Shown in pieces: positions 1,496 to 18,533 of a stretch of DNA of 18,533 nt (positions are counted from its first letter, which is position 1; each line of letters begins with the position of its first letter). The translations under genes were made by a program, and so were the position numbers. Source of the DNA: a virus (Duplodnaviria; Heunggongvirae; Uroviricota; Caudoviricetes); IMG/VR virus record IMGVR_UViG_2541047722_000018, positions 1 through 18,533 of that record; one strand, 5' to 3'. The notes below the pieces were generated by a model, which was not told the origin of the DNA, searched no databases, and saw only the letters and a list, made by a program, of their open reading frames with translations.

Positions 1496-1509
1496 ACGGA
1501 GTAAACACC

Positions 1510-1935
1510 ATGAAGAAATTATCCCTTTCACTGATGCTGAACGTGTCGCTGGCGCTGATGCTGGCACTGTCCCTGATTTACCCGCAGAGCGTGGCCGTCA
1601 ATTTTGTCGCCGCCTGGGCGATTCTGGCGACGGTTATCTGTGTGGTTGCCGGCGGTGTCGGCGTGTATGCCACAGAGTATGTACTGGAACGCCACGGGCG
1701 GGGGCTGCCGCCGGAATCGCTGGCCGTGAAGATTGTCACGTCGCTGTTTTTGCAGCCGGTGCCGTGGCGCAGACGGGCGGTGGCTCTGGTAGTGATGGTG
1801 GCGACGTTTATCTCGCTGGTCGCTGCCGGGTGGATTTTTACTGCGCTGATTTATCTTGTGGCGTCGCTGTTTTTCCGGCGGATACGTACGGCCTGCCGTC
1901 AGCGTTTTGAGGGGCGGGAACCATGTCAAAGCTGA
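1510..1935 (+). CDS. lysA: Lysis timing/accessory membrane protein LysA-like, 141 aa
   Basis: Strongly hydrophobic multi-helix protein directly after K; AGGA-like RBS before the ATG; same size and position as P2 lysA. Confidence 0.7.
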   Translation: MKKLSLSLMLNVSLALMLALSLIYPQSVAVNFVAAWAILATVICVVAGGVGVYATEYVLERHGRGLPPESLAVKIVTSLFLQPVPWRRRAVALVVMVATFISLVAAGWIFTALIYLVASLFFRRIRTACRQRFEGREPCQS

Positions 1936-2348
1936 TGACTGTGCTGGTTGTGTTGTTATCACTGGCGGTGGCCGGTCTGTTTCTGGTGAAGCATGAAAAC
2001 GCCAGCCTGCGCACCTCGCTGGACAGGGCGAACAGTGTCGCCAGCGGGCAGCAGACGACCATCACCATGCTGAAAAATCAGCTTCATGTTGCGCTCACCA
2101 GGGCAGACAAAAACGAGCTGGCGCAGGTTGCACTGCGTCAGGAGCTGGAGAACGCCGCGAAGCGTGAAGCACAGCGCGAGAAAACCATCACGAGGTTACT
2201 CAATGAAAACGAAGATTTTCGCCGCTGGTACGGTGCTGACCTGCCTGATGCTGTGCGCCGGTTGCACCAGCGCCCCGCCTGCACTGACGCCAGTGATTGT
2301 CCCCAACGCCTGCCCGAAAGTGAGTCTTTGCCCGATGCCGGGCAGTGA
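1923..2348 (+). CDS. lysB: Inner-membrane spanin LysB (Rz-like), 141 aa
   Basis: N-terminal transmembrane segment (LMTVLVVLLSLAVAGLFLV) followed by a charged, coiled-coil-like periplasmic region; overlaps the lysA end; P2 lysB size. Confidence 0.75.
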   Translation: MSKLMTVLVVLLSLAVAGLFLVKHENASLRTSLDRANSVASGQQTTITMLKNQLHVALTRADKNELAQVALRQELENAAKREAQREKTITRLLNENEDFRRWYGADLPDAVRRLHQRPACTDASDCPQRLPESESLPDAGQ

Positions 2349-2493
2349 CCCGCAGACGAACGGCGATTTAAGTGCCGATATCCGGCAGCTTGAGAACGCG
2401 CTGGCACGGTGTGCCAGCCAGATAAAAATGATTAAACACTGTCAGGACGAAAACGATGCTCAAACCCGACAGCCTGCGCAGGGCGCTGACTGA
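2203..2493 (+). CDS. lysC: Outer-membrane spanin LysC (Rz1-like lipoprotein), 96 aa
   Basis: ATG at 2203 inside the lysB 3' end in a different frame; signal peptide with lipobox (LMLCAG-C) and a proline-rich mature part; runs into the R start. Track ORF 2086..2493 over-extends upstream. Confidence 0.7.
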   Translation: MKTKIFAAGTVLTCLMLCAGCTSAPPALTPVIVPNACPKVSLCPMPGSDPQTNGDLSADIRQLENALARCASQIKMIKHCQDENDAQTRQPAQGAD

Positions 2494-2923
2494 TGCCGTC
2501 ACGGTGCTGAAAACTAACCCCGATATGCTGCGGATATTCGTGGATAACGGGAGTATTGCCTCCACACTGGCGACGTCGCTGTCATTCGAAAAGCGTTACA
2601 CGCTCAATGTCATTGTGACCGACTTTACCGGTGATTTTGACCTGCTCATCGTGCCGGTGCTGGCGTGGCTGCGGGAAAATCAGCCCGACATCATGACCAC
2701 CGACGAAGGCCAGAAAAAGGGCTTCACGTTTTATGCAGACATCAACAATGACAGCAGCTTTGATATCAGCATCAGTCTGATGCTGACCGAGCGCACGCTG
2801 GTCAGTGAGGTGGACGGCGCACTGCATGTGAAGAATATCCCGGAACCTCCGCCGCCGGAGCCGGTCACCCGCCCGGTGGAGTTGTATATCAATGGCGAAC
2901 TGGTGAGCAAGTGGGATGAATGA
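2456..2923 (+). CDS. R: Tail completion protein (P2 gpR-like), 155 aa
   Basis: Size and position as P2 R; overlaps the lysC end and the S start. Confidence 0.8.
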   Translation: MLKPDSLRRALTDAVTVLKTNPDMLRIFVDNGSIASTLATSLSFEKRYTLNVIVTDFTGDFDLLIVPVLAWLRENQPDIMTTDEGQKKGFTFYADINNDSSFDISISLMLTERTLVSEVDGALHVKNIPEPPPPEPVTRPVELYINGELVSKWDE

Positions 2924-3368
2924 GTTTAAGCGTTTTGAAGACCGGCTGACCGGGCTGATTGAATCGCTGTCACCGTCAGGGCGTCGGCGACTGAGTGCCG
3001 AACTGGCGAAACGTCTGCGTCAGAGTCAGCAACGTCGGGTGATGGCACAGAAAGCCCCGGACGGCACACCCTATGCGCCACGCCAGCAGCAGAGCGCCAG
3101 AAAAAAGACCGGTCGTGTTAAGCGAAAAATGTTTGCGAAACTTATCACCAGTCGCTTTTTGCATATCCGCGCCAGCCCGGAACAGGCATCAATGGAGTTT
3201 TACGGCGGAAAGTCACCGAAAATCGCCAGTGTGCATCAGTTCGGTCTGTCGGAAGAAACCCGGAAAGACGGTAAGAAAATTGATTATCCGGCGCGTCCTC
3301 TGCTCGGCTTTACCGGTGAGGATGTGCAGATGATTGAAGAGATTATCCTGGCTCACCTTGACCGTTAG
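2916..3368 (+). CDS. S: Tail completion protein (P2 gpS-like), 150 aa
   Basis: Size and position as P2 S; start ATG overlaps the R stop (ATGAATGA). Confidence 0.8.
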   Translation: MNEFKRFEDRLTGLIESLSPSGRRRLSAELAKRLRQSQQRRVMAQKAPDGTPYAPRQQQSARKKTGRVKRKMFAKLITSRFLHIRASPEQASMEFYGGKSPKIASVHQFGLSEETRKDGKKIDYPARPLLGFTGEDVQMIEEIILAHLDR

Positions 3369-3434
3369 TTGTGCCATTCCCGACACCTCATCGTCACATT
3401 GCCGCCGGTATGACCCGGCGGCATCCTTCCCGTT

Positions 3435-4070
3435 ATGAACACTCTCGCAAATATTCAGGAACTCGCGCGCGCACTGCGCAACATGATTCGCACCGGCGTT
3501 ATCGTCGAAACCGACCTTAACGCCGGTCGCTGCCGTGTGCAGACCGGCGGCATGTGCACCGACTGGCTTCAGTGGCTGACCCATCGCGCCGGGCGTTCGC
3601 GCACATGGTGGGCACCTTCCGTGGGGGAACAGGTGCTGATTCTGGCCGTGGGCGGTGAACTTGACACGGCGTTTGTTCTGCCGGGGATTTATTCCGGTGA
3701 TAACCCCGCGCCGTCTGCGTCGGCGGATGCCCTGCATATCCGTTTCCCTGACGGGGCGGTGATTGAGTATGAACCCGAAACCAGTGCACTCACGGTAAGC
3801 GGAATTAAAACGGCCAGCGTGACGGCTTCTGATTCTGTTACCGCCACGGTGCCGGTGGTCATGGTGAAAGCGTCAACCCGCGTCACCCTGGACACACCGG
3901 AGGTGGTCTGCACCAACAGGCTGATTACTGGCACGCTGGAAGTACAGAAGGGCGGGACGATGCGCGGCAACATTGAACACACCGGTGGTGAACTCTCATC
4001 AAACGGTAAGGTACTGCATACCCATAAACACCCCGGCGACAGCGGCGGCACAACCGGGGGACCTCTATGA
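3435..4070 (+). CDS. V: Baseplate spike/assembly protein (P2 gpV-like), 211 aa
   Basis: First gene after a 66-bp gap, consistent with the start of the V-W-J-I-H-G late operon; size matches P2 gpV. Confidence 0.85.
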   Translation: MNTLANIQELARALRNMIRTGVIVETDLNAGRCRVQTGGMCTDWLQWLTHRAGRSRTWWAPSVGEQVLILAVGGELDTAFVLPGIYSGDNPAPSASADALHIRFPDGAVIEYEPETSALTVSGIKTASVTASDSVTATVPVVMVKASTRVTLDTPEVVCTNRLITGTLEVQKGGTMRGNIEHTGGELSSNGKVLHTHKHPGDSGGTTGGPL

Positions 4071-4414
4071 CTGCGCGTTATCTCGGAATGAATCGCAGTG
4101 ATGGCCTGACTGTCACTGACCTTGAGCATATCAGCCAGAGTATCGGCGATATCCTGCGCACGCCGGTCGGCTCACGGGTGATGCGTCGTGATTACGGTTC
4201 GTTGCTGGCGTCAATGATTGACCAGCCGCAGACCCCGGCGCTTGAGTTGCAGATTAAGGTCGCCTGTTACATGGCGGTGCTGAAATGGGAACCCCGCGTC
4301 ACCCTGTCATCCGTCACCACGGCGCGCAGTTTTGACGGGCGAATGACGGTCACGTTAACCGGTCAGCACAACGACACCGGCCAGCCACTTTCGTTAACCA
4401 TCCCTGTGAGTTGA
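4067..4414 (+). CDS. W: Baseplate wedge protein (P2 gpW-like, T4 gp25 family), 115 aa
   Basis: Overlaps the V stop (ATGA); size and order as P2 W. Confidence 0.85.
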   Translation: MTARYLGMNRSDGLTVTDLEHISQSIGDILRTPVGSRVMRRDYGSLLASMIDQPQTPALELQIKVACYMAVLKWEPRVTLSSVTTARSFDGRMTVTLTGQHNDTGQPLSLTIPVS

Positions 4415-4418
4415 AACC

Positions 4419-5327
4419 ATGCCGATTATCGACCTGAACCAGCTACCCGCACCGGATGTGGTTGAGGAGCTGGACTTTGAAACCATTCTTGCCGAACGCA
4501 AGGCGACACTGATTTCCCTTTACCCGGAAGACCAGCAGGAGGCGGTCGCCCGTACCCTGACGCTGGAATCCGAGCCTCTCGTCAAACTGCTGGAGGAAAA
4601 TGCTTATCGTGAGCTTATCTGGCGTCAGCGTGTGAATGAGGCCGCACGGGCGGTAATGCTGGCCAGTGCCGCCGGTAATGACCTTGATGTGATTGGTGCC
4701 AATTACAATACCACGCGCCTGATTATCACCCCGGCAGATGATTCGACCATCCCGCCGACACCGGCAGTAATGGAATCTGACACTGATTATCGTCTGCGTA
4801 TTCAGCAGGCGTTTGAAGGTTTAAGCGTCGCCGGGTCGGTGGGTGCCTATCAGTATCATGGCCGCAGTGCCGACGGGCGTGTCGCGGATATCTCTGTCAC
4901 CAGTCCGTCTCCGGCCTGTGTCACCATCTCTGTGCTGTCACGTGAAAATAACGGTGTCGCATCCGAAGACCTGCTGGCCGTGGTGCGTAACGCCCTTAAT
5001 GGTGAGGACGTCAGGCCGGTGGCTGACCGTGTGACCGTGCAGTCTGCCGCCATTGTTGAATACCAGATAAACGCCACGCTTTACCTTTACCCTGGTCCCG
5101 AAAGCGAACCCATCCGCGCGGCCGCCGTGAAAAAGCTGGAAGCGTACATCACGGCACAGCACCGGCTGGGGCGCGACATCCGTCTGTCTGCCATTTATGC
5201 CGCTTTGCATGTGGAAGGCGTGCAGCGTGTCGAGCTGGCGGCACCACTGGCCGACATCGTGCTCAACAGTACGCAGGCGTCTTTCTGTACCGAATACCGC
5301 GTCGTGACCGGAGGCTCGGATGAGTGA
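4419..5327 (+). CDS. J: Baseplate protein (P2 gpJ-like), 302 aa
   Basis: Size and order as P2 J. Confidence 0.85.
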   Translation: MPIIDLNQLPAPDVVEELDFETILAERKATLISLYPEDQQEAVARTLTLESEPLVKLLEENAYRELIWRQRVNEAARAVMLASAAGNDLDVIGANYNTTRLIITPADDSTIPPTPAVMESDTDYRLRIQQAFEGLSVAGSVGAYQYHGRSADGRVADISVTSPSPACVTISVLSRENNGVASEDLLAVVRNALNGEDVRPVADRVTVQSAAIVEYQINATLYLYPGPESEPIRAAAVKKLEAYITAQHRLGRDIRLSAIYAALHVEGVQRVELAAPLADIVLNSTQASFCTEYRVVTGGSDE

Positions 5328-5850
5328 TTCGCGACTGCTGCCGACCGGCTCATCACCGCTTGAAGTCGCCGCTGCAAAAGCCTGTGCGGAAATTGAAAAA
5401 ACGCCGGTCAGTATTCGTGAGCTGTGGAACCTGGACACCTGCCCGGCAAATCTGCTGCCGTGGCTGGCGTGGGCGTTTTCGGTCGACAGATGGGATGAAA
5501 AGTGGCCGGAAGCGACCAAACGCGCCGTTATACGCGATGCCTATTTCATCCACTGTCATAAAGGCACTATAGGTGCAATCCGGCGTGTGGTGGAGCCGCT
5601 GGGCTATCTCATCAACGTGACGGAGTGGTGGGAAACCAGTGACCCGCCCGGCACCTTCCGGCTTGATATTGGTGTACTGGAAAGCGGTATCACAGAGGCA
5701 ATGTATCAGGAAATGGAACGGCTGATTGCTGATGCCAAACCTGCAAGCCGTCACCTTATTGGCCTGAACATTATCCAGGACATTCCCGGCTGTCTGTATA
5801 CAGGCGGTGTGGTCTGTGATGGTGATGTTATTACTGTTTATCCCGGATAA
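5320..5850 (+). CDS. I: Baseplate/tail protein (P2 gpI-like), 176 aa
   Basis: Overlaps the J end by 8 nt; size and order as P2 I. Confidence 0.8.
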   Translation: MSDSRLLPTGSSPLEVAAAKACAEIEKTPVSIRELWNLDTCPANLLPWLAWAFSVDRWDEKWPEATKRAVIRDAYFIHCHKGTIGAIRRVVEPLGYLINVTEWWETSDPPGTFRLDIGVLESGITEAMYQEMERLIADAKPASRHLIGLNIIQDIPGCLYTGGVVCDGDVITVYPG

Positions 5851-5860
5851 GTGAGAAACA

Positions 5861-8647
5861 ATGAGCACGAAATTTAAAACCGTTATCACTACTGCCGGAG
5901 CCGCAAAGCTGGCAGCCGCCACTGTCCCCGGCGGGAAAAAAGTAAACCTGTCTGCAATGGCCGTGGGTGACGGTAATGGCAAATTGCCGGTGCCGGATGC
6001 CGGTCAGACGAAACTGGTGCATGAGGTCTGGCGTCACGCTCTGAATAAAGTCAGCGTGGATAACAAGAATAAAAACTATATCGTGGCTGAACTGGTTGTA
6101 CCGCCAGAAGTGGGCGGCTTCTGGATGCGTGAACTTGGTCTGTATGACGATGCCGGAACACTGATTGCGGTATCCAACATGGCAGAAAGCTATAAGCCAG
6201 AACTGGCTGAAGGCTCCGGACGTGCGCAGACCTGCCGCATGGTTATTATTCTCAGCAACGTGGCGTCCGTTGAGCTGAGTATTGATGCCAGCACGGTGAT
6301 GGCGACGCAGGATTACGTCGATGACAAAATCGCAGAGCATGAGCAGTCCCGCCGCCATCCTGACGCCACGCTGACAGAAAAAGGTTTTACTCAGTTAAGC
6401 AGTGCAACAAACAGCACCAGTGAAAAGCTGGCAGCAACGCCAAAGGCAGTAAAAGCAGCCTATGACAATGCTGAAAAACGTATGCAGAAAGACCAGAACG
6501 GTGGCGATATTCCAGATAAGGGCGCTTTTCTGGACAATGTTGGCGTTACCAGCCTGACGTTTATGAAAAACAATGGCGAAATGCCGCTTGATGCTGATCT
6601 GAATACATTTGGTCCCGTTAAGGCTTATCTGGGGATCTGGTCTAAAGCTACCTCAACTAACGCAACACTGGAGAAAAATTTTCCGGAAGATAATGCTGTC
6701 GGTGTGCTTGAGGTTTTTGCTGCCGGCAATTTTGCAGGTACGCAACGCTTCACCACGAGAGACGGCAATGTATACATACGCAGACTCGCCAATAAGTGGA
6801 ATGGCTCTGATGGTCCGTGGGGCATATGGCGTCACACTCAATCAGCTACCCGCCCTTTGAGTACGACTATAGACCTGAATACGCTTGGAGCCGCCGAACA
6901 TCTTGGTTTATGGCGTAACAGTAGCTCGGCTATAGCTTCATATGAACGCAATTATCCAGAGGAAGGCGGCTTTGCTCAGGGGATGCTTGAGATCCTCGAA
7001 GGCGGGAATTATGGAAGAACGCAACGTTATACCACTCGCCGTGGAAATATGTATGTCCGCTGCCTTGCGGCAAGCTGGGATGTATCAAATCCGCAGTGGG
7101 AACCGTGGTTAAGAGTCGGTCATCAGTCAGAGAGTCGTTATTACGAAGGTGATTTAAATGTTCTAACCGACCCCGGTATTTACAGTGTTACAGGAAAGGC
7201 AACAAACGGTCCGATGCTGGACACCGTTGGCGCGACACTACTTGGGATACTGGAAGTAATCAGACGTTTTGATGGTGTGTCTGTCTGGCAGCGTTACACA
7301 ACCACAGGGAAATCAGAAACCACACAGGGACGCACTTTTGAGCGCGTCTACGCCGGGAGCAAATGGACCGAATGGCGAGAAGTATATAACTCCTTTTCGT
7401 TGCCTCTGAATCTGGGCATCGGTGGCGCAGTGGCAAAACTATCCAGTCTGGACTGGCAGACCTACGATTTTGTGCCGGGCAGTCTGATAACCGTGCGGCT
7501 TGATAACATGACCAACATTCCCGACGGTATGGACTGGGGCGTCATTGATGGCAACCTGATAAACATCGCAGTTGGTCCGAGTGATGATTCCGGTACGGGA
7601 CGCTCAATGCATGTATGGCGAAGCACTGTAAGTAAAGCCAACTACCGCTTTTTTATGGTGCGCGTTTCAGGAAATCCGGGAAGCCGCACGATTACAACAA
7701 GACGAGTACCAATCATTGACGAAGCCCAGACATGGGGCGCGAAACAGACATTCAGTGCTGGCCTTTCTGGTGAACTGTTCGGCAATGCTGCGACAGCAAC
7801 AAAGCTGAAAACAGCCCGTAAAATTAATAACGTTTCGTTTGATGGAACATCAGATATTAACCTGACGCCTGAAGATATTGGTGCATTGCCAATAACGGGA
7901 GGAACTCTTACCGGCGGTTTAACTGCTGCTGGCGAGATTATTTCCAAATCGGCGAATGGTCTTCGTATTGCCTATGGCAACTATGGATTCTTTATCCGAA
8001 ACGATGGTTCAAGCACATACCTCATGTTGACCAATTCGGGCGACAGCCTGGGAACATGGAATAGTTTAAGGCCGCTTACCATTAATAACGCCAGTGGAGC
8101 TGTTTCTATCGGTAATAGTTTAACTGTTAATGGTGATATAGGAACCAATGCTTGGGTATATGCAAATCGTTTTGCAATTAATAGCAGTACCGGAATGTGG
8201 ATAAATATGCGTGACCAGAATGTTATTTTTGGACGTAATGCGGTATCCACCGATGGTGCTCAGGCATTGTTACGTCAGGACCATGCTGATCGCAAATTTA
8301 TGATTGGTGGTCTGGGGAATAAGCAATTTGGCATCTACATGATTAATAATTCAAGGACAGCCAATGGCACCGATGGTCAGGCGTACATGGATAATAACGG
8401 GAATTGGCTTTGCGGTGCGCAAGTTATTCCCGGCAATTATGGTAATTTTGACTCACGCTATGTGAGAGATGTCAGACTTGGCACACGTGTTGTTCAGACC
8501 ATGCAAAAAGGCGTGATGTATGAAAAATCAGGTCATGTAATCACGGGGCTTGGTATTGTCGGTGAAGTCGATGGTGATGACCCCGCAGTATTCAGACCAA
8601 TACAAAAATACATCAATGGCACATGGTATAACGTCGCACAGGTGTAA
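5861..8647 (+). CDS. H: Tail fibre protein (P2 gpH-like N-terminus, divergent repeat-containing distal region), 928 aa
   Basis: N-terminus MSTKFKTVITTAGAAKLAAA... is the conserved P2-type fibre anchor. It is longer than the 669 aa I recall for P2 H. It has three tandem ~92-aa repeats, a GGTLTGGL motif common in enterobacterial phage fibres, and a visibly more AT-rich distal part. Confidence 0.85.
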   Translation: MSTKFKTVITTAGAAKLAAATVPGGKKVNLSAMAVGDGNGKLPVPDAGQTKLVHEVWRHALNKVSVDNKNKNYIVAELVVPPEVGGFWMRELGLYDDAGTLIAVSNMAESYKPELAEGSGRAQTCRMVIILSNVASVELSIDASTVMATQDYVDDKIAEHEQSRRHPDATLTEKGFTQLSSATNSTSEKLAATPKAVKAAYDNAEKRMQKDQNGGDIPDKGAFLDNVGVTSLTFMKNNGEMPLDADLNTFGPVKAYLGIWSKATSTNATLEKNFPEDNAVGVLEVFAAGNFAGTQRFTTRDGNVYIRRLANKWNGSDGPWGIWRHTQSATRPLSTTIDLNTLGAAEHLGLWRNSSSAIASYERNYPEEGGFAQGMLEILEGGNYGRTQRYTTRRGNMYVRCLAASWDVSNPQWEPWLRVGHQSESRYYEGDLNVLTDPGIYSVTGKATNGPMLDTVGATLLGILEVIRRFDGVSVWQRYTTTGKSETTQGRTFERVYAGSKWTEWREVYNSFSLPLNLGIGGAVAKLSSLDWQTYDFVPGSLITVRLDNMTNIPDGMDWGVIDGNLINIAVGPSDDSGTGRSMHVWRSTVSKANYRFFMVRVSGNPGSRTITTRRVPIIDEAQTWGAKQTFSAGLSGELFGNAATATKLKTARKINNVSFDGTSDINLTPEDIGALPITGGTLTGGLTAAGEIISKSANGLRIAYGNYGFFIRNDGSSTYLMLTNSGDSLGTWNSLRPLTINNASGAVSIGNSLTVNGDIGTNAWVYANRFAINSSTGMWINMRDQNVIFGRNAVSTDGAQALLRQDHADRKFMIGGLGNKQFGIYMINNSRTANGTDGQAYMDNNGNWLCGAQVIPGNYGNFDSRYVRDVRLGTRVVQTMQKGVMYEKSGHVITGLGIVGEVDGDDPAVFRPIQKYINGTWYNVAQV
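6599..7385 (+). repeat. Three tandem ~92-aa (276-279 nt) protein-level repeats inside tail fibre H
   Basis: Repeat units start at 6599, 6875 and 7154, each beginning with an LNT/LNV motif and sharing an ...L(E)VxxxGN(F/Y)xxTQR(F/Y)TTRxGNxYxRxLAxxW... core. Confidence 0.6.
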
Positions 8648-8650
8648 TTT

Positions 8651-9178
8651 ATGCAGCATTTAAAAAATATTACTGCGGGTAATCCAAAAACTGTTGCCCA
8701 ATATCAACTGACAAAAAATTTTGATGTTATCTGGTTATGGTCCGAAGAGGGAAAAAACTGGTATGAGGAAGTAAGTAATTTTCAGGAAGACACGATAAAG
8801 ATTGTTTACGACGAGAATAATATAATTGTCGGCATCACCAGAGATGCTTCAACGCTCAACCCTGAAGGTTTTAGCGTTGTCGAGGTTCCTGATATTACCG
8901 CCAACCGACGTGCTGATGACTCAGGTAAATGGATGTTTAAGGATGGTGCCGTGATTAAGCGGATTTATACGGCAGACGAACAGCAACAACAGGCAGAATC
9001 ACAAAAGGCCGCGTTACTTTCCGAAACCGAATCCGTGATTTTGCCGCTGGAGCGCGCTGTCAGGCTGAATATGGCAACAGATGAGGAGCGCAGTCGACTG
9101 GAAGCATGGGAACGCTACAGCGTTCTGGTCAGTCGTGTGGATCCTGCAAATCCTGAATGGCCGGAAATGCCGCAATAA
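8651..9178 (+). CDS. G: Tail fibre assembly protein / chaperone (P2 gpG, Tfa family), 175 aa
   Basis: Directly after H; size as P2 G; AT-rich like the distal part of H; ends ...[12 protein letters not shown]. Confidence 0.8.
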
Positions 9179-9331
9179 GTTGTATGAGCTCTGGTGGGAG
9201 CTTACATATCTATGGCACAGAGTAAAGCCTAATCTGACAGTCCGCTCTGTGCTAGGAGCGGACATTGTTGCCATCTATCTGCATAAATCTGTGGGGAGCT
9301 GCTCACTTGTGGGGAATGAGTCCTCAACTGT

Positions 9332-9360
9332 TTGCGTTTATAAACACAATCCTTTAGATT
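9332..9360 (+). promoter_or_regulatory. Candidate sigma70 promoter for the cargo ORF
   Basis: TTGCGT (9332-9337), 17-nt spacer, TAGATT (9355-9360), about 30 nt upstream of the cargo start; each hexamer matches consensus at 4/6 only. Confidence 0.3.
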
Positions 9361-9390
9361 CTCTCCTACTATCTACTAAAATTTTATCTA

Positions 9391-10518
9391 GTGAAAATGC
9401 CCAATAATCATATGTATGCAAGTCTACTGTCTTACAAAAACTTAAAGATGGCACATCAAGGAAGTAACTTACGGTCTATTACTGAGTTTTCTCTCTATTC
9501 AGATAGTCAACCAATTGGGGCGGTTGATGATGATTCAGTTTATTGTTTTCTGAATATGTTACCCAGGATAACCAAACAATCCACCGTTGCATCTTCAATT
9601 ACAGTGCGCACAAAGTGGTATAGTGACTTAAATAATATGATTCTTTCTAGTTCTCAGAGTCATACAAAGGATTATCATGGTGGATGGTATAATGATGAAA
9701 TAGCTGCGCTTTCAAGTTTACTGCTTGGTGTCCGTTTTCATGCTGGGTCAATTACTCGTCACTATGATTACTACACAGGTGATTTCGGAAGGATCCAAGC
9801 GGAGAGTTCTTTTCCTCCCGTTTTAGAGTTTAAACATAACAAACCTATAGTTCCTAATGCTATCAAAGAAATTGATATAACTAACCTTAAAGAGCTTAAC
9901 AATTTACATCTCTTAAGTGAAAAGAATTTCAACCATTTAATTAGAGCAGCCAGAAGCTATCAAAATGCATTATGGATATGCGAGTCATCTCCAAATATGA
10001 GTTGGCTATTGATGGTGTCAGCCCTAGAATGTGCGGCTAATCAATGGGCAAAATCCAATGCGTCTAAAGAAGAAAGATTTAAACATGCCAAGCCTGAATT
10101 ATATGAAAAATTAGATACCAATGAATTTAGACATTTAATCTCTATTATTGCTAATGAGTTTAAAGATTCATTTGGGGCGACAAAGAAGTTTGTGGATTTC
10201 TGCCTGTATTTCCTTCCAGATGAACCTCAAGTGAGGCCAAAAGTAGGAAGAATTGATTGGGGAAAAGAATCGCTATCAACAACTTTTAAAAAAATATATA
10301 ACTACCGTTCTAAGGCATTGCATGGAGGACAACCATTTCCTGAGCCGATGTGTTCCTATCCTGAAGTATGGGATGGGTATATTGCTGAACGAGCGAGAGC
10401 ATGTTCAACCTTAGGTGGAACGTGGTTGAATGAAGATGTGCCAATTAATTTAAATACATTCAACTTTATGACCCATTCCATTTTGAATAAGTGGTGGCAA
10501 TCTTTATTACCAAGTTAA
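9391..10518 (+). CDS. Hypothetical protein, cargo gene at the G/FI variable locus; candidate anti-phage defence protein (possible C-terminal HEPN-like R-x4-H motif), up to 375 aa
   Basis: Single long ORF in an AT-rich island: hand count 20/60 G+C at its 5' end versus 33/60 at the start of FI. Start uncertain (GTG 9391, ATG 9397 or downstream ATGs; no strong SD). No transmembrane segments or P-loop seen. Occupies the P2 Z/fun position. Confidence 0.6.
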   Translation: MKMPNNHMYASLLSYKNLKMAHQGSNLRSITEFSLYSDSQPIGAVDDDSVYCFLNMLPRITKQSTVASSITVRTKWYSDLNNMILSSSQSHTKDYHGGWYNDEIAALSSLLLGVRFHAGSITRHYDYYTGDFGRIQAESSFPPVLEFKHNKPIVPNAIKEIDITNLKELNNLHLLSEKNFNHLIRAARSYQNALWICESSPNMSWLLMVSALECAANQWAKSNASKEERFKHAKPELYEKLDTNEFRHLISIIANEFKDSFGATKKFVDFCLYFLPDEPQVRPKVGRIDWGKESLSTTFKKIYNYRSKALHGGQPFPEPMCSYPEVWDGYIAERARACSTLGGTWLNEDVPINLNTFNFMTHSILNKWWQSLLPS

Positions 10519-10540
10519 CACTGTAAGTATCAGTGTTAAC
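10514..10540. repeat. Perfect 10-bp inverted repeat overlapping the cargo stop codon
   Basis: GTTAACACTG (10514-10523), 7-nt spacer, CAGTGTTAAC (10531-10540). Confidence 0.6.
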
Positions 10541-10609
10541 TGCACCATGTAATTTTATATCTGTACCAGACTGGAGGAAAATGTTCGCTTATCGCTCATT
10601 AGGGTCAAC

Positions 10610-10648
10610 CATACTCAAATCTCTCACATTGCAGGAGATTTGAGTATG
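10610..10648. repeat. Perfect 14-bp inverted repeat with 11-nt spacer
   Basis: CATACTCAAATCTC (10610-10623), spacer tcacattgcag, GAGATTTGAGTATG (10635-10648). Confidence 0.6.
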
Positions 10649-10671
10649 AACACGTCACCGTGGAAGGACTG

Positions 10672-10694
10672 GCGGGCGAATTGCCCGCTTTTTT
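10672..10694 (+). terminator. Rho-independent terminator downstream of the cargo ORF
   Basis: GCGGGC-gaatt-GCCCGC stem-loop followed by TTTTTT on the + strand. Confidence 0.6.
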
Positions 10695-10792
10695 GTATCT
10701 GTTGTTTCATCCACTGACCAGCCAGGTCAAATAGCGTCTCATGCTCTGCACAACAGAAAATAGTTGCACCCATTAACCACGGAGTTAAACGG

Positions 10793-11983
10793 ATGAGTGA
10801 CTATCATCACGGCGTGCAGGTGCTGGAGATTAACGACGGCACCCGCGTCATTTCCACCGTATCCACCGCCATTGTTGGCATGGTCTGCACGGCCAGCGAT
10901 GCGGATGCGGAAACCTTCCCCGTCAATAAACCGGTGCTGATCACCAATGTGCAGAGCGCGATTGCAAAGGCCGGTAAAAAAGGTACGCTGGCGGCATCGT
11001 TGCAGGCCATCGCTGACCAGTCAAAACCGGTCACCGTTGTCGTGCGCGTGGAAGACGGCACCGGCGACGACGAAGAAACGAAACTCGCGCAGACCGTTTC
11101 CAATATCATCGGCACCACTGACGAAAACGGTCAGTACACCGGACTGAAAGCCCTGATGGGCGCAGAGTCGGTTACCGGCGTTAAACCGCGCATTCTCGGC
11201 GTACCGGGACTGGACACCAAAGAGGTGGCGGTTGCACTGGCATCGGTATGCCAGGAACTGAATGCCTTCGGGTATATCAGCGCATGGGGCTGTAAAACCA
11301 TTTCCGAGGCAAAAGCCTACCGTCAGAATTTCAGTCAGCGTGAGCTGATGGTCATCTGGCCGGATTTCCTTGCATGGGATACGGTCACCAGTACCACCGC
11401 CACCGCGTATGCCACCGCCCGTGCGCTGGGGCTGCGTGCCAAAATCGACCAGGAGCAGGGCTGGCATAAAACGCTGTCCAACGTCGGGGTAAACGGTGTT
11501 ACCGGCATCAGCGCATCTGTATTCTGGGATTTGCAGAAGTCTGGCACTGATGCTGACCTGCTGAACGAGGCAGGCGTCACAACGCTGGTTCGCCGCGACG
11601 GTTTCCGTTTCTGGGGTAACCGTACCTGCTCCGATGACCCACTTTTCCTCTTTGAAAGCTACACACGTACCGCGCAGGTACTGGCCGACACGATGGCTGA
11701 GGCGCACATGTGGGCTATTGATAAGCCCATCACCGCAACGCTGATTCGCGACATCATTGATGGCATCAATGCCAAATTCCGCGAACTGAAAAACAACGGT
11801 TATATCGTGGATGGCACATGCTGGTTCAGTGAAGAAGCCAACGATGCGGAAACCCTCAAGGCCGGAAAACTGTATATCGACTACGACTATACACCGGTGC
11901 CTCCTCTCGAAAACCTGACCCTGCGCCAGCGTATTACTTCAAGATACCTGGCAAGTCTGGTCACCTCGGTTAACAGCAATTAA
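10793..11983 (+). CDS. FI: Contractile tail sheath protein (P2 gpFI-like), 396 aa
   Basis: GGAG RBS before the ATG; size and order as P2 FI; first gene of the FI-FII-E-T-U-D operon. Confidence 0.9.
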   Translation: MSDYHHGVQVLEINDGTRVISTVSTAIVGMVCTASDADAETFPVNKPVLITNVQSAIAKAGKKGTLAASLQAIADQSKPVTVVVRVEDGTGDDEETKLAQTVSNIIGTTDENGQYTGLKALMGAESVTGVKPRILGVPGLDTKEVAVALASVCQELNAFGYISAWGCKTISEAKAYRQNFSQRELMVIWPDFLAWDTVTSTTATAYATARALGLRAKIDQEQGWHKTLSNVGVNGVTGISASVFWDLQKSGTDADLLNEAGVTTLVRRDGFRFWGNRTCSDDPLFLFESYTRTAQVLADTMAEAHMWAIDKPITATLIRDIIDGINAKFRELKNNGYIVDGTCWFSEEANDAETLKAGKLYIDYDYTPVPPLENLTLRQRITSRYLASLVTSVNSN

Positions 11984-11995
11984 GGAGCCTGACCG

Positions 11996-12514
11996 ATGGC
12001 AATGCCGCGCAAACTCAAGTTAATGAACGTCTTTCTGAACGGCTACAGCTATCAGGGCGTTGCAAAGTCCGTCACGCTGCCAAAACTGACCCGTAAGCTC
12101 GAAAACTATCGCGGTGCGGGGATGAACGGCAGCGCACCGGTAGACCTCGGCCTTGATGACGATGCGCTGTCAATGGAGTGGTCGCTCGGTGGCTTCCCGG
12201 ATTCGGTTATCTGGGAGCTTTACGCCGCAACCGGTGTGGATGCCGTGCCGATTCGTTTTGCAGGCTCTTACCAGCGCGACGATACCGGCGAAACGGTGGC
12301 CGTCGAAGTGGTCATGCGTGGACGTCAGAAAGAAATCGACACCGGCGAGGGTAAACAGGGAGAAGACACCGAGTCGAAAATCTCCGTGGTCTGCACCTAT
12401 TTCCGGCTGACGATGGACGGTAAGGAGCTGGTCGAAATCGACACCATCAACATGATTGAGAAGGTGAACGGCGTCGACCGGCTGGAGCAACACCGCCGCA
12501 ATATCGGCCTGTGA
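11996..12514 (+). CDS. FII: Tail tube protein (P2 gpFII-like), 172 aa
   Basis: AGGAG RBS; size and order as P2 FII. Confidence 0.9.
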   Translation: MAMPRKLKLMNVFLNGYSYQGVAKSVTLPKLTRKLENYRGAGMNGSAPVDLGLDDDALSMEWSLGGFPDSVIWELYAATGVDAVPIRFAGSYQRDDTGETVAVEVVMRGRQKEIDTGEGKQGEDTESKISVVCTYFRLTMDGKELVEIDTINMIEKVNGVDRLEQHRRNIGL

Positions 12515-12570
12515 TTTTCATCCGGTCAGCCTGGCTGACCGGTTAACCCCGATTCAGAAGTGAGAAAACC

Positions 12571-12846
12571 ATGAACAAAGAAAATGTGATTACCCTGGAC
12601 AATCCGGTCAAGCGTGGTGAGCAGGTTATCGAACAGGTCACGCTGATGAAACCCAATGCCGGGACGCTGCGCGGTGTCAGTCTGGCTGCGGTCGCAAACT
12701 CCGAAGTCGATGCACTGATTAAGGTGCTGCCGCGCATGACGGCACCGATGCTGACCGAGCAGGAGGTCGCCGCGCTGGAACTGCCTGACCTTGTGGCGCT
12801 GGCCGGTAAGGTGGTCGGTTTTTTGTCTCCGAACTCGGTGCAGTGA
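12571..12846 (+). CDS. E: Tail assembly chaperone E (P2 gpE-like), 91 aa
   Basis: Size and position as P2 E; contains the slippery site T-TTT-TTG near its 3' end. Confidence 0.8.
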   Translation: MNKENVITLDNPVKRGEQVIEQVTLMKPNAGTLRGVSLAAVANSEVDALIKVLPRMTAPMLTEQEVAALELPDLVALAGKVVGFLSPNSVQ

Positions 12847-12998
12847 CGTTTCCGAAAAATCTGTCGGTCGATGACCTGATGGCAGATGTGGCAGTGATAT
12901 TTCACTGGCCGCCATCAGAACTGTATCCCATGAGCCTGACCGAACTCATCACATGGCGCGAAAAGGCGCTCCGGCGAAGCGGAAACACGAATGAGTAA
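12571..12998 (+). CDS. E+E': Tail assembly chaperone fusion E+E' made by a programmed -1 translational frameshift
   Basis: Slippery heptamer T TTT TTG at 12819-12825; after a -1 slip the frame stays open (..VSELGAVTFPKNL...RRSGNTNE) to TAA at 12996-12998, overlapping the T start codon. Analogous to the P2 E/E' and lambda G/GT arrangement. Confidence 0.65.
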
Positions 12999-15438
12999 CA
13001 ATGTAAAATTACAGGTATTGCTCAGGGCTGTTGACCAGGCATCCCGCCCGTTTAAATCCATCCGCACAGCGAGTAAGTCGCTGTCGGGGGATATCCGGGA
13101 AACACAAAAATCACTGCGCGAGCTGAACGGTCACGCATCCCGTATTGAGGGATTCCGCAAGACCAGTGCACAGCTCGCCGTGACTGGTCATGCACTTGAA
13201 AAGGCACGGCAGGAAGCCGAAGCCCTTGCCACACAGTTTAAAAACACCGAACGTCCGACCCGTGCTCAGGCGAAAGTGCTGGAATCCGCAAAGCGTGCGG
13301 CGGAGGACTTACAGGCGAAATATAACCACCTGACGGATTCCGTTAAACGCCAGCAACGGGAACTGGCCGTTGTGGGAATTAATACCCGCAATCTTGCACA
13401 TGATGAGCAGGGACTGAAAAACCGTATCAGTGAAACCACCGCACAACTTAACCGTCAGCGTGACGCGCTGGCGCGTGTCAGTACGCAACAGGCAAAACTT
13501 AACGCAGTAAAACAGCGTTATCAGGCCGGAAAGGAACTGGCCGGAAATATGGCCTCGGTAGGCGCTGCCGGTGTGGGGATTGCGGCGGCGGGAACGATGG
13601 CCGGAGTTAAGCTGCTGATGCCCGGTTATGAGTTTGCGCAGAAAAACTCAGAATTGCAGGCCGTGCTAGGAGTGGCAAAAGACTCCGCCGAAATGGCCGC
13701 GCTACGCAAACAGGCGCGCCAGCTCGGCGACAACACAGCCGCCTCGGCGGATGATGCAGCAGCAGCTCAAATCATCGTGGCTAAATCAGGAGCGGATAAA
13801 AATGGCATCTTGGCACAAACACCGGCCATTTTGAATATGTCACTGGCAAACAAGAAAACGATGGAGGAAAACGCCACTTTACTTATTGGGACAAAATCGG
13901 CATTCGGGCTTGCTGATGATAAGGCTTCCCATATTGCTGATGTTATTTCAATGACGATGAATAAATCGCAAGCCACATTCGAGGGACTAAGTGATTCACT
14001 TACCTATGTCGGGCCAGTGGCAAAAGATGCAGGTGTCAGCTTGGAAGAAACAGCAGCAATGTTAGGTGCATTACACGATGCAAATATCAGTGGGTCTATG
14101 GCTGGCACAGGAAGTCGAGCAGTACTGAGTCGTTTGCAGGCACCAACCGGGAAAGCGTATGACGCTATTAAAGAGCTTGGCGTAAAGACAACTGACAGCA
14201 AAGGTAATACGCGACCTGTCTTTTCAATTCTGAAAGAAATTCAGCGGAGTTTTGAAAAAAATAAACTAGGAACAGGGCAGCGCGCTGAATACATGAAAAC
14301 AATATTCGGCGAAGAGGCCAGCTCATCAGCAAGTGTATTAATGACAGCAGCAGCCAGCGGCAAGCTGGATAATCTGACCAGGTTGATTAAAGAATCTGAC
14401 GGTAAAACAGAAGAACTGGTTAAGGTTATGCAGGACAACCTCGGCGGTGACTTTAAGGAGTTTCAGTCCGCTTATGAGGCGGTGGGGACTGACCTGTTTG
14501 ACCAGCAGGAAGGCGCACTGCGTAAGCTCACGCAGACGGCCACAAATTATGTGTTAAAACTCGACGGCTGGATCCAGAAAAACAAATCACTGGCGTCAAC
14601 CATCGGCATCATTGCCGGTGGCGCGCTGGCGCTGACTGGCATCATCGGTGCCATTGGTCTTGTCGCCTGGCCGGTTATCACCGGCATCAATGCCATCATC
14701 GCGGCAGCAGGCGCAATGGGGGCAATCTTCACGACGGTTGGCAGTGCCGTTATGACGGCCATCGGGGCGATTAGCTGGCCGGTTGTGGCCGTGGTGGCCG
14801 CCATTGTCGCCGGGGCGTTGCTTATCCGTAAATACTGGGAGCCTGTCAGCGCATTCTTTGGCGGTGTGGTTGAAGGGCTTAAAGCGGCATTTGCGCCGGT
14901 GGGGGAACTGTTCACGCCACTTAAACCGGTTTTTGACTGGCTGGGGGAAAAGTTACAGGCCGCGTGGCAGTGGTTTAAAAATCTGATTGCCCCGGTCAAA
15001 GCCACCCAGGACACCCTGAACCGTTGCCGTGACACGGGGGTCATGTTCGGGCAGGCACTGGCTGACGCGCTGATGCTGCCGCTTAATGCGTTCAACAAAC
15101 TGCGCAGCGGCATTGACTGGGTACTGGAAAAACTCGGTGTTATCAACAAAGAGTCAGACACACTTGACCAGACCGCCGCCAGAACTCAAGCCGCCACGTA
15201 TGGCAGCGGTGGTTATATTCCGGCGACCAGCTCTTATGCAGGCTATCAGGCTTATCAGCCGGTCACGGCACCGGCTGGCCGCTCTTATGTAGACCAGAGT
15301 AAAAACGAATATCACATCAGCCTGACGGGTGGTACTGCGCCGGGGACACAGCTTGACCGCCAGTTACAGGATGCGCTCGAAAAATACGAGCGGGATAAAC
15401 GTGCGCGCGCCCGTGCCAGCATGATGCATGACGGTTAA
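12991..15438 (+). CDS. T: Tail tape measure protein (P2 gpT-like), 815 aa
   Basis: Large alpha-helical protein with a central Gly/Ala-rich hydrophobic segment; size and order as P2 T. Confidence 0.85.
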   Translation: MSNNVKLQVLLRAVDQASRPFKSIRTASKSLSGDIRETQKSLRELNGHASRIEGFRKTSAQLAVTGHALEKARQEAEALATQFKNTERPTRAQAKVLESAKRAAEDLQAKYNHLTDSVKRQQRELAVVGINTRNLAHDEQGLKNRISETTAQLNRQRDALARVSTQQAKLNAVKQRYQAGKELAGNMASVGAAGVGIAAAGTMAGVKLLMPGYEFAQKNSELQAVLGVAKDSAEMAALRKQARQLGDNTAASADDAAAAQIIVAKSGADKNGILAQTPAILNMSLANKKTMEENATLLIGTKSAFGLADDKASHIADVISMTMNKSQATFEGLSDSLTYVGPVAKDAGVSLEETAAMLGALHDANISGSMAGTGSRAVLSRLQAPTGKAYDAIKELGVKTTDSKGNTRPVFSILKEIQRSFEKNKLGTGQRAEYMKTIFGEEASSSASVLMTAAASGKLDNLTRLIKESDGKTEELVKVMQDNLGGDFKEFQSAYEAVGTDLFDQQEGALRKLTQTATNYVLKLDGWIQKNKSLASTIGIIAGGALALTGIIGAIGLVAWPVITGINAIIAAAGAMGAIFTTVGSAVMTAIGAISWPVVAVVAAIVAGALLIRKYWEPVSAFFGGVVEGLKAAFAPVGELFTPLKPVFDWLGEKLQAAWQWFKNLIAPVKATQDTLNRCRDTGVMFGQALADALMLPLNAFNKLRSGIDWVLEKLGVINKESDTLDQTAARTQAATYGSGGYIPATSSYAGYQAYQPVTAPAGRSYVDQSKNEYHISLTGGTAPGTQLDRQLQDALEKYERDKRARARASMMHDG

Positions 15439-15452
15439 GGAGGTGACGAAAA

Positions 15453-15932
15453 ATGATGCTCGCGTTAGGTATGTTTGTTTTTATGCGCCAGACGCTGCCA
15501 CACCAGACCATGCAGCGTGAATCAGATTATCGCTGGCCGTCAAATTCCCGTATCGGCAAACGGGATGCCTTTCAATTTCTCGGTGTGGGTGAGGAAAACA
15601 TCACGCTTGCCGGTGTGCTTTATCCCGAACTGACCGGCGGAAAGCTGACGATGACCACGCTCAGGCTGATGGCAGAGGAAGGCCGGGCGTGGCCGTTGCT
15701 GGATGGCACCGGCATGATTTATGGCATGTATGTCATCAGTAAGGTGAGTGAAACAGGGAGTATTTTCTTTGCAGACGGCACACCCCGGAAAATTGATTTT
15801 ACGCTGTCGCTCACCCGCGTTGATGAATCACTGGCCGCGCTTTATGGCGATATCGGTAAACAGGCGGAATCGCTCATCGGTAAGGCTGGCAGTATAGCGA
15901 CTAAATTCACGGGTATGACGGAGGCGGGATAA
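15453..15932 (+). CDS. U: Tail protein (P2 gpU-like), 159 aa
   Basis: AGGAGG RBS; size and order as P2 U. Confidence 0.85.
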   Translation: MMLALGMFVFMRQTLPHQTMQRESDYRWPSNSRIGKRDAFQFLGVGEENITLAGVLYPELTGGKLTMTTLRLMAEEGRAWPLLDGTGMIYGMYVISKVSETGSIFFADGTPRKIDFTLSLTRVDESLAALYGDIGKQAESLIGKAGSIATKFTGMTEAG

Positions 15933-17095
15933 TGCTGGATGCGCTGACATTTGATGCAGGCAGTACGCTGACGCCGGATTACATGCTGATGCTCGACAGC
16001 AGGGATATTACCGGCAATATCAGCGACCGTCTGATGAGCATGACCCTGACGGATAACCGGGGCTTTGAGGCTGACCAGCTTGATATTGAACTGAACGATG
16101 CCGACGGGCAGGTCGGACTGCCGGTTCGTGGCGCTGTCCTGACGGTGTATATCGGCTGGAAAGGTTTTGCCCTGGTATGCAAAGGGAAATTTACCGTTGA
16201 TGAGGTTGAACACCGGGGCGCACCGGATGTGGTCACCATCCGCGCCCGGAGTGCAGATTTTCGCGGGACGCTCAATTCCCGCCGTGAAGGCTCCTGGCAT
16301 GACACCACGCTCGGTGCGATTGTTGAGGCGATAGCCTCCCGTAACAGGCTGGAAGCCAGTGTCGCGCCGTCACTGGCAGGAATTAAAATCCCGCACATCG
16401 ACCAGTCGCAGGAGTCTGATGCGAAATTCCTGACCCGTCTTGCAGAACGCAACGGCGGTGAGGTGTCGGTAAAAATGGGAAAACTGTTGTTTCTCAAAGC
16501 GGGGCAGGGGGTGACGTCCAGCGGTAAAAAAATCCCGCAGATTACCATCACCCGCAGCGACGGCGACCGTCATCATTTTGCGATTGCTGACCGTGGAGCC
16601 TATACCGGCGTAACGGCAAAGTGGTTACACACCAAAGACCCGAAGCCGCAAAAGCAGAAGGTAAAACTGAAACGCAAAAAGAAAGAGAAACACCTGCGCG
16701 CACTGGAGCACCCGAAAGCGAAACCAGTCACGCAGAAGAAAGCGCCAAAAGTACCGGAAGCGCGCGAAGGTGAATACATGGCCGGTGAGGTTGATAACGT
16801 TTTTGCCCTGACCACGGTATATGCCACGAAAGCACAGGCCATGCGTGCCGCTCAGGCGAAGTGGGATAAGCTGCAACGGGGTGTAGCGGAGTTCTCCATC
16901 AGCCTGGCTACTGGTCGGGCAGATATTTACACGGAAACACCGGTTAAAGTGTCAGGCTTTAAGCGCGTCATAGACGAGCAGGACTGGACAATCACTAAGG
17001 TGACACATTTTCTGAATAATAGCGGCTTCACGACGTCCTTAGAGCTTGAGGTCAGGCTTTCTGATGTGGAGCACGAAACAGAAGATGATGAGTGA
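15932..17095 (+). CDS. D: Tail protein (P2 gpD-like), 387 aa
   Basis: Start overlaps the U stop (TAATG); size and order as P2 D; contains a Lys-rich low-complexity linker. Confidence 0.85.
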   Translation: MLDALTFDAGSTLTPDYMLMLDSRDITGNISDRLMSMTLTDNRGFEADQLDIELNDADGQVGLPVRGAVLTVYIGWKGFALVCKGKFTVDEVEHRGAPDVVTIRARSADFRGTLNSRREGSWHDTTLGAIVEAIASRNRLEASVAPSLAGIKIPHIDQSQESDAKFLTRLAERNGGEVSVKMGKLLFLKAGQGVTSSGKKIPQITITRSDGDRHHFAIADRGAYTGVTAKWLHTKDPKPQKQKVKLKRKKKEKHLRALEHPKAKPVTQKKAPKVPEAREGEYMAGEVDNVFALTTVYATKAQAMRAAQAKWDKLQRGVAEFSISLATGRADIYTETPVKVSGFKRVIDEQDWTITKVTHFLNNSGFTTSLELEVRLSDVEHETEDDE

Positions 17096-17176
17096 TGTAA
17101 TTTATTTATCTGTTTGTTTTATAAGGATAAATTAACTAAAATGGCACCATCAACAAAACCGGAAGAGGTGCTCGCG

Positions 17177-17395
17177 ATGTTTCATTGTCCTTTATGCCAG
17201 CATGCCGCACATGCGCGTACAAGCCGCTATATCACTGACACGACAAAAGAGCGTTATCACCAGTGTCAGAACGTGAATTGCAGCGCCACATTCATCACTT
17301 ATGAGTCGGTACAGCGATACATCGTGAAGCCGGGAGAAGTCCACGCCGTAAGACCGCACCCGTTGCCGTCAGGGCAGCAAATTATGTGGATGTGA
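17177..17395 (+). CDS. ogr: Late-gene transcriptional activator Ogr (zinc-finger, 72 aa)
   Basis: MFHCPLCQHAAHARTSRYITDTTKERYHQCQNVNCSATF... matches my recollection of P2 Ogr, with a C-x2-C...C-x4-C zinc-binding pattern. ATG at 17177 has an AGAGG RBS; the track ORF from 17114 is an over-extension. Confidence 0.9.
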   Translation: MFHCPLCQHAAHARTSRYITDTTKERYHQCQNVNCSATFITYESVQRYIVKPGEVHAVRPHPLPSGQQIMWM

Positions 17396-17405
17396 TCACA
17401 AAAAT

Positions 17406-17430
17406 AGCCCCTCAGTCGAGGGGCTTATTT
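17406..17430. terminator. Stem-loop terminator after ogr (possibly bidirectional)
   Basis: AGCCCCTC-agtc-GAGGGGCT with T-rich tracts on both sides. Confidence 0.55.
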
Positions 17431-17521
17431 ATGGTCGATGTGGACGCTATGTGGACAGTGGTTGACATAAATCCATTTATATCATCAGGTTAGGTGCTTT
17501 TTTGTGACACCATCCCTGTCT
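17431..17521. other. Probable attR region of the prophage (integrase arm-type direct repeats plus core); exact core not determinable from this window
   Basis: Lies between the last phage gene (ogr) and host sequence. ATGTGGAC occurs twice (17438-17445 and 17449-17456) with 11-bp periodicity. Confidence 0.35.
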
Positions 17522-17548
17522 TCCCCCACATGATGTGGGGGTTTTTTT
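17522..17548 (+). terminator. Rho-independent terminator, probably the host cpxP (CpxQ 3'-UTR sRNA) terminator
   Basis: CCCCCAC-atgat-GTGGGGG followed by eight T; located just upstream of fieF, where cpxP sits in E. coli. Confidence 0.6.
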
Positions 17549-17630
17549 TATCCTCAATTTGCCTGCTGCTTAATGCATTGCAGATGATTTGCTTCCGTTA
17601 TACTACCGTCAGTTGATAGCGGGAGTATTT

Positions 17631-18533
17631 ATGAATCAATCTTATGGACGGCTGGTCAGTCGGGCGGCGATTGCTGCGACGGCGATGGCTTCGCTGCTAT
17701 TGCTGATTAAAATTTTTGCATGGTGGTATACCGGGTCGGTGAGTATTCTCGCCGCGCTGGTGGATTCGCTGGTGGATATCGGCGCGTCGTTGACGAATTT
17801 ACTGGTGGTGCGATATTCCCTGCAACCTGCCGACGATAATCACTCGTTTGGTCACGGTAAAGCTGAGTCCCTCGCGGCGCTGGCGCAAAGTATGTTTATC
17901 TCCGGTTCGGCACTATTCCTGTTTTTGACGGGTATTCAACATCTGGTATCTCCAACACCGATGACAGATCCAGGCGTCGGGGTTATCGTGACAATTGTGG
18001 CGCTAATTTGTACGATTATCCTTGTCTCGTTTCAGCGTTGGGTGGTGCGCCGGACGCAAAGCCAGGCGGTGCGGGCTGATATGCTACATTACCAGTCTGA
18101 TGTTATGATGAACGGCGCAATTCTGCTGGCGCTGGGGTTGTCCTGGTACGGCTGGCATCGCGCCGATGCTCTGTTTGCATTGGGGATCGGCATCTATATT
18201 TTATATAGCGCGTTACGCATGGGATATGAGGCGGTACAGTCATTACTGGATCGCGCATTGCCTGATGAGGAACGGCAAGAAATTATTGATATCGTGACTT
18301 CCTGGCCGGGTGTTAGCGGCGCTCACGATCTTCGCACGCGGCAGTCAGGGCCGACCCGCTTTATTCAGATTCATTTGGAAATGGAAGACTCTCTGCCTTT
18401 GGTTCAGGCACATATGGTGGCGGATCAGGTAGAGCAGGCTATTTTACGGCGTTTTCCGGGATCGGATGTGATTATCCATCAGGACCCCTGTTCCGTCGTA
18501 CCCAGGGAGGGTAAACGGTCTATGCTTTCATAA
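17631..18533 (+). CDS. fieF: Cation-diffusion-facilitator family ferrous-iron/zinc efflux transporter FieF (YiiP)
   Basis: [54 protein letters not shown]... matches my recollection of E. coli FieF; GGGAG RBS before the ATG at 17631; the track start at 17589 is an over-extension; the window ends at the stop codon. Confidence 0.9.

Follow-up and report, generated by a model that had tools for sequence, protein, structure and literature searches.

The E and E+E' proteins of phage P2 are a textbook example of the conserved tail-chaperone frameshift, and the shift that links them was reportedly shown experimentally in 2002. According to PMC3091744, in which Christie et al. 2002 (J Bacteriol 184:6522) is cited together with Xu et al. 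2004, a -1 shift at TTTTTTG in P2 gives a 91-aa E and a 142-aa E+E' from one start; the same source reports no downstream hairpin for the P2-like E+E'. The P2 reference record (NC_001895; P2p26/P2p25) contains the 91-aa E and a joined coding sequence for E+E', annotated as the product of a -1 frameshift with an amino terminus shared with gpE, and it labels both E and E+E' as essential tail proteins. For the occurrence of the shift in P2, and for the essential nature of its two products, we rely on this record and on the literature.

A comparable arrangement is found in phage lambda, where gpG and gpGT are likewise encoded by two overlapping open reading frames (ORFs), with the major tail (tube) gene on one side and the tape measure gene on the other. 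As in P2, a -1 shift takes place at an X_XXY_YYZ heptamer close to where the first ORF ends, giving an abundant short protein and a rare long one which have a common N terminus and are proposed to be chaperones of the tape measure protein. The G/GT chaperone model and the conservation of the frameshift in long-tailed double-stranded DNA phages (Levin 1993; Xu, Hendrix & Duda 2004, 2013, and 2014) are summarized in PMC5009743.

Here, we describe an E/E' locus from an E. coli prophage of the P2-like (Peduovirus) type; it is almost certainly orthologous to the P2 E/E+E' programmed -1 ribosomal frameshift. The P2 E/E+E' frameshift is a known feature, and the locus has little significance as a discovery; the residual novelty lies in a possible upstream Shine-Dalgarno (SD)-like modulator and in the persistent misannotation of E' as a separate gene.

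The window contains the late-gene half of a P2-like prophage

The window, by which we mean the whole 18,533-nucleotide stretch that was analysed (IMG/VR virus record IMGVR_UViG_2541047722_000018, positions 1 to 18,533), corresponds to the late-gene half of a P2-like prophage whose right junction adjoins E. coli fieF. Positions 1-17552 are approximately 98% identical to Peduovirus genomes, for example that of Yersinia phage vB_YpM_22, and the 800 bases around the frameshift site share 99.4-99.5% identity with several phages of the P2 group. Phage similarity ends at position 17552, and fieF occupies positions 17589-18533; the window copy is therefore a prophage adjoining fieF in an E. coli chromosome and not the P2 reference phage. 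The segment from 17350 to 18533, which spans ogrK and fieF, was matched in every complete E. coli genome; since this query started within ogr, 5426 of 5426 genomes match there whether they carry a full prophage or not. The E/E' locus itself was present in 1582 of the 5426 complete E. coli genomes (~29%). Genes in the window follow the order sheath (10793-11983), tube gene FII, E/E', tape measure gene T, U, D, and ogr, and the location of E/E' between FII and T, both of which were identified using Pfam and TIGRFAM, is as in P2 (Table 1).

Table 1. Coordinates of the E/E' site, its neighbouring genes, and the right end of the prophage in the window
Feature	Position	Strand	Evidence and remarks
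FII, major tail tube gene, upstream neighbour of E	11996-12514	+	Pfam PF04985 Phage_tube, E = 2.3e-60; counterpart of P2 FII
Gene E, tail assembly chaperone, 91 aa, zero-frame product	12571-12846	+	ATG at 12571, TGA at 12844-12846; Pfam PF10109 Phage_TAC_7
SD-like AGGTG, candidate frameshift modulator	12809-12813	+	Conservation at synonymous sites; putative function
Slippery heptamer T_TTT_TTG, -1 frameshift site	12819-12825	+	Sequence and phase; same in P2, where it is annotated as a frameshift
E' extension, 57 codons in the -1 frame plus TAA	12825-12998	+	Pfam PF06528; PHROG 1756 and 6416
E/E' dual-coding overlap, last 6 sense codons of E plus TGA	12826-12846	+	Also read in the -1 frame
Gene T, tail tape measure protein, 815 aa	12991-15438	+	Pfam PF10145, E = 4.2e-47; TIGR01760, E = 1.9e-96
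Ogr, zinc-finger late activator	17177-17395		PF04606; followed by the prophage/host junction
Prophage/host junction and E. coli sequence	17553-18533		

Anatomy of the E/E' site

The E protein matched Pfam PF10109 ("Phage tail assembly chaperone proteins E, or 41 or 14") with an E value of 2.6e-12 and a score of 47 bits (cutoff, 25), and the identical 91-aa protein, named "phage tail assembly protein," was found on at least 1000 contigs. The last codons of E read ...AAG GTG GTC GGT TTT TTG TCT CCG AAC TCG GTG CAG TGA. Because the zero-frame codons at the heptamer are GGT (12817-12819), TTT (12820-12822), and TTG (12823-12825), T_TTT_TTG lies in the canonical X_XXY_YYZ phase for tandem tRNA slippage. 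The initial annotation had described this heptamer as lying 20 nt before the E stop; its presence and phase were correct, but the distance to the first base of the stop codon is 18 nt (12826-12843).

Translation agreed with the same annotation in that the -1 frame, read from GTC at position 12825, stays open for 57 further sense codons (12825-12995; VSELGAVTFPKNLSVDDLMADVAVIFHWPPSELYPMSLTELITWREKALRRSGNTNE) and closes, at the TAA in 12996-12998, where T begins, as this stop and the ATG of T at position 12991 overlap in ATGAGTAA (12991-12998). Ribosomes ending E+E' would stop on the T start codon, and translational coupling from E+E' to T is therefore possible. Codons 1 to 85 of E together with the E' extension make up the 142-aa E+E', for which the predicted junction is ...KVVGFL/VSELGAV... 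(the slash marks the shift; junction peptide, VVGFLVSELGAVTFPK). The E' peptide matched Pfam PF06528 (Phage_P2_GpE) at fusion residues 104-139 with an E value of 1.2e-21 and 76.3 bits (cutoff, 23), and both the E and the E' parts fall in tail families of the PHROGs. Searches of the 142-aa fusion against NCBIfam gave no match, and no sequence relative is present in the PDB. The window's exact 142-aa fusion was also absent from a collection of ~15 billion proteins, as gene callers do not make fusions.

As a sequence by itself, TTTTTTG is not enriched in the window, with 4 occurrences on both strands versus 4.17 expected from shuffles; the bare heptamer therefore carries no signal, and it is the context that is nonrandom. 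Among the 17 in-phase X_XXY_YYZ heptamers in plus-strand genes, only the one at 12819-12825 lies near a gene end and is followed by a long -1 ORF, which extends for 57 codons compared with 0 to 37 at the other sites. The -1 frame is open for at least 57 codons at only 4% of the codon positions in the genes of the window.

The E/E' DNA of the window is 99% identical to that of P2 and the heptamer is the same, as is its T_TTT_TTG phase, its 18-nt distance to the E stop, the 91-aa and 142-aa products, and the overlap of E' and T in ATGAGTAA; in both phages the site is flanked by FII and T. The position that the P2 record marks as "site of -1 translational frameshift" aligns to positions 12825/12826 of the window. 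When the P2 product was built by tandem slippage, with the -1 step taken after TTG (...GFL/VAELG...), the result was exactly the deposited protein NP_046780.1 (UniProt O64312; TAPFS_BPP2, "Tail assembly protein E'"). Relative to the P2 fusion, that of the window differs at two residues, with N29 in place of S29 and, just past the junction, S87 in place of A87. The alignment with P2 E' suggested by the initial annotation thus returned nearly identical DNA with the same heptamer and spacing, and the claim of a programmed -1 frameshift producing E+E' is upheld by this identity, by the annotated shift in P2, and by the agreement between the deposited P2 protein and the predicted product. It is from this orthology that we infer frameshifting in this particular prophage.

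Two other junctions were considered for the P2 product. The first, ...GFLF..., is absent from the protein collection, and the second, ...GFFV..., occurs there in one single E. coli entry; the curated P2 protein has ...GFLV....

The -1 frame is conserved as a coding sequence among relatives

A scan of viral contigs with E returned only loci that were 99-100% identical, which are useless for assessing conservation; we therefore used a spread of tblastn matches together with a genome scan. When the 142-aa fusion was used as the tblastn query, 418 phage records were recovered, and among the 40 listed, 39 match in two pieces, i.e., in two reading frames. From these matches, 12 divergent phage examples (30-79% protein identity), which infect Klebsiella, Yersinia, Burkholderia, Ralstonia, Shewanella, Pseudomonas, Microcystis, Escherichia, Mannheimia, and Vibrio, were combined with P2 and the window to give 14 diverse loci. 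In all 14, E' is read in the -1 frame and the overlap contains an in-phase slippery heptamer (T_TTT_TTG in 10, T_TTT_TTT in 2, A_AAT_TTT in 1, and G_GGA_AAG in 1), and their alignment shows that the E' domain keeps an A-D-I-A-x-x-F-H-W...W-R-E-x-A motif.

Scanning one genome per bacterial species yielded a further 80 loci (79 unique), 78 of which have E' in the -1 frame with either TTTTTTG (75 loci) or TTTTTTA (3 loci); across these 78, the heptamer is invariant except that Z is G or A. Taken together, 92 of 94 loci (14 phages and 80 species) combine an E' in the -1 frame with an in-phase heptamer, which is in keeping with the conserved chaperone arrangement claimed by the initial annotation. 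The overlap between E' and T is also retained, having the form (A/G)TGAGTNN in 66 of the 80 species loci (ATGAGTAA, or ATGAGTGA/TAG, or GTGAGTAA), with AGCAATAA in its place in 11.

We then compared the 67 unique sequences that have a 57-codon E'. The first six bases of the heptamer are invariant over this set, and in the E'-only region, differences from the window numbered 410, 262, and 1127 at E' codon positions 1, 2, and 3, respectively. Amino-acid identity was 83% in the E' frame versus 58-60% in the other two frames, at a nucleotide identity of 82%. The substitution pattern and the excess of amino-acid identity in this one frame demonstrate that the -1 frame is protein coding and under purifying selection, so that conservation with E' homologues, on which the initial annotation had staked its reading, is observed both in the distribution of the loci and at third codon positions. 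The dual-coding overlap at 12826-12846 has no third-position bias, with entropies of 0.82, 0.62, and 0.83 at E' codon positions 1, 2, and 3.

Both exceptions among the 80 species loci are found in Symbiopectobacterium. At the locus from "Candidatus Symbiopectobacterium sp. 'North America'" (L097, positions 1100-1220), the loss of 11 nt immediately 5' of the T run has brought E and E' into a single frame, and because the two are joined, no separate E is made. In "Ca. S. endolongispinus" (L174), another indel disrupts the E' frame. These two loci are consistent with decaying prophages in host-restricted symbionts.

Annotation of E' and alternatives to ribosomal frameshifting

Automated annotation presents E' as a gene in its own right. 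An ORF with a GTG start does exist at 12843-12998, and RefSeq/PGAP annotation of E. coli genomes, along with several phage records, calls it a "GpE family phage tail protein"; on this account E' would be a separate small gene of 51 aa, initiated at GTG 12843 and requiring no frameshift. We consider this very improbable, as there is no GGAG- or AGGA-type ribosome-binding motif in the 18 nt before GTG 12843, and the annotated starts of the E' ORF are inconsistent among relatives (37-51 aa), which is typical of a gene-caller artefact. An independent start would also leave unexplained the retention of an in-phase heptamer at 92 of 94 loci when the synonymous sites around it are saturated, and both the curated P2 record and UniProt describe an E+E' fusion. 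The GTG-initiated 51-aa E' in RefSeq/PGAP and in several phage records is a systematic annotation artefact, and automated annotation still splits off this spurious protein rather than producing the 142-aa fusion. Stand-alone annotations of 51 aa are seen at 12843-12998 of the window and at 13094-13249 of locus L177.

Transcriptional slippage, in which an extra U inserted by RNA polymerase within the T6 run would place E and E' in frame in a minority of mRNAs, is likewise very improbable: the six-T homopolymer is present and an extra U would make the same frame change and nearly the same protein, but six residues is short for efficient slippage by RNA polymerase, the heptamer phase is always that required for tandem tRNA re-pairing, and relatives keep the X_XXY_YYZ phase without a long homopolymer, namely, A_AAT_TTT in Escherichia phage 503458 and G_GGA_AAG in Mannheimia phage 587AP1, the record of which carries its own note naming the slippery sequence. 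The literature likewise treats the P2 shift as translational (PMC3091744).

Proposed mechanism of the shift and role of its products

Under a programmed ribosomal frameshift, most ribosomes would read E through to its TGA and release the 91-aa gpE. In a small fraction of ribosomes, with tRNA-Phe on UUU in the P site and tRNA-Leu on UUG in the A site (12820-12825), both tRNAs would slip one base back onto U_UUU_UU; reading would then resume at GUC (12825), continue for 57 more codons, and end at the UAA in 12996-12998 to give the 142-aa gpE+E'.

By analogy with lambda gpG/gpGT, the E domain shared by the short protein and the fusion would bind the tape measure protein gpT, and the E' domain, which is rarer, would bind the tail tube protein and nucleate polymerization of the tube around the tape measure. 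Both chaperones would be expected, again as in lambda, to leave before the tail is completed, with neither ending up in the virion. The binding partners of E and E' and the low efficiency of the shift are what we infer, and the present system differs from that of lambda in several respects: the window heptamer is T_TTT_TTG, whereas that of lambda is G_GGA_AAG; the Pfam families of E and E' (PF10109 and PF06528) are not those of lambda G and T; and the P2 tail is contractile.

In E. coli reporters, the -1 shift at U_UUU_UUG amounted to 0.118% when no stimulator was present, to 0.247% when the context was that of IS911, and to 0.765% when the IS3 pseudoknot was supplied (PMC4066793, Table S3 and Fig. 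S3), with a reporter background of ~0.05% (PMC4066793). Folding of the region downstream of the heptamer (12826-12905; z = 0.43) and of a wider region (12770-12900; z = -0.29) revealed no RNA structure beyond that of shuffled controls, in line with the lack of a hairpin reported in PMC3091744. As the heptamer is weak and no downstream structure beyond chance accompanies it, the supply of enough E+E' is not fully explained.

An SD-like motif upstream of the slippery heptamer

Near the end of E, a short stretch of synonymous sites is more constant than its surroundings. In the codon alignment, entropy was 0.19 at position 12810 (the third base of AAG) and 0.43 at position 12813 (the third base of GTG), compared with a mean of 1.22 for third positions of E and with 1.2-1.75 for the third positions neighbouring these two. 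Among 90 nonidentical loci, counted without correction for relatedness, G is the last base of the K/Q/E codon at 12808-12810 in 83 of 86 cases (70 AAG, 7 CAG, and 6 GAG versus 1 each of AAA, CAA, and GAA), whereas Lys elsewhere in these ORFs is AAA 74% of the time (AAG background, 26%); Val at the motif is GTG in 78 of 85 loci against a background of 36%. As a control for codon context, K/Q/E codons before GT were found to end in G 63% of the time in the genes of this phage, and the G-ending signal (97%) is therefore real yet less extreme than the 26% AAG background implies.

The conserved AGGTG fits the AGGKG class of SD-like frameshift stimulators, with a spacing of 6 nt to the heptamer. An SD-like motif, as defined in PMC4066793, occurs in 81 of the 90 loci versus 13% of background positions, again with relatedness uncorrected. 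An upstream AGGKG motif is likewise a property of the SD-stimulated sites of dnaX and IS911/IS3; the spacing at the E site is at the extreme short end of the stimulatory range for such sites, and dnaX and IS911 have a downstream hairpin or pseudoknot, whereas none was found at the E site. Stimulatory spacing has been given as 6-17 nt (PMC4066793) and, elsewhere, as 9-14 nt when the shift stimulated is -1 and as 3 nt when it is +1 (PMC5009743); since the latter range for -1 begins at 9 nt, the direction of any effect at 6 nt is uncertain.

The literature that we searched does not mention an SD motif at P2 E+E'. On the strength of its constancy across enterobacterial, Ralstonia, and other P2-like phages, we tentatively propose that AGGUG may determine how much E+E' is made relative to E through base pairing to the anti-SD of elongating ribosomes, although we would not rate this as the probable outcome. 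It could boost an intrinsically weak slippery site or, at so short a spacing, restrain it. The upstream AGGTG is a modest lead and not a finding; its conservation offers a hypothesis for how a weak heptamer might be tuned.

Other features of the window

An in-phase A_AAA_AAG, which belongs to the most shift-prone class of heptamers in E. coli, is present at 3101-3107 inside the tail-completion gene S (2916-3368). The -1 frame after it closes within 4 codons (DRSC followed by a stop), and slippage there would yield a truncated S of ~68 aa; this heptamer is probably incidental.

Between the tail-fibre assembly gene and the sheath gene, at the position that Z/fun occupies in P2, there is a 375-aa ORF (9391-10518) for which Pfam, PHROG, and PADLOC gave no match and whose relatives, 356-373 aa in length, are annotated as hypothetical proteins. 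A low-GC stretch (35-41% GC) at about 9600-10800 coincides with this ORF, which looks like foreign cargo at a known variable spot of P2; it could plausibly serve in defence or in lysogenic conversion.

The tail fibre gene H (5861-8647) is a mosaic receptor-binding region. It encodes 928 aa and contains a T4 gp34-like trimerization domain (PF21446); its GC content falls toward the 3' end, and the protein is longer than the 911-aa versions found in its closest phage and E. coli relatives.
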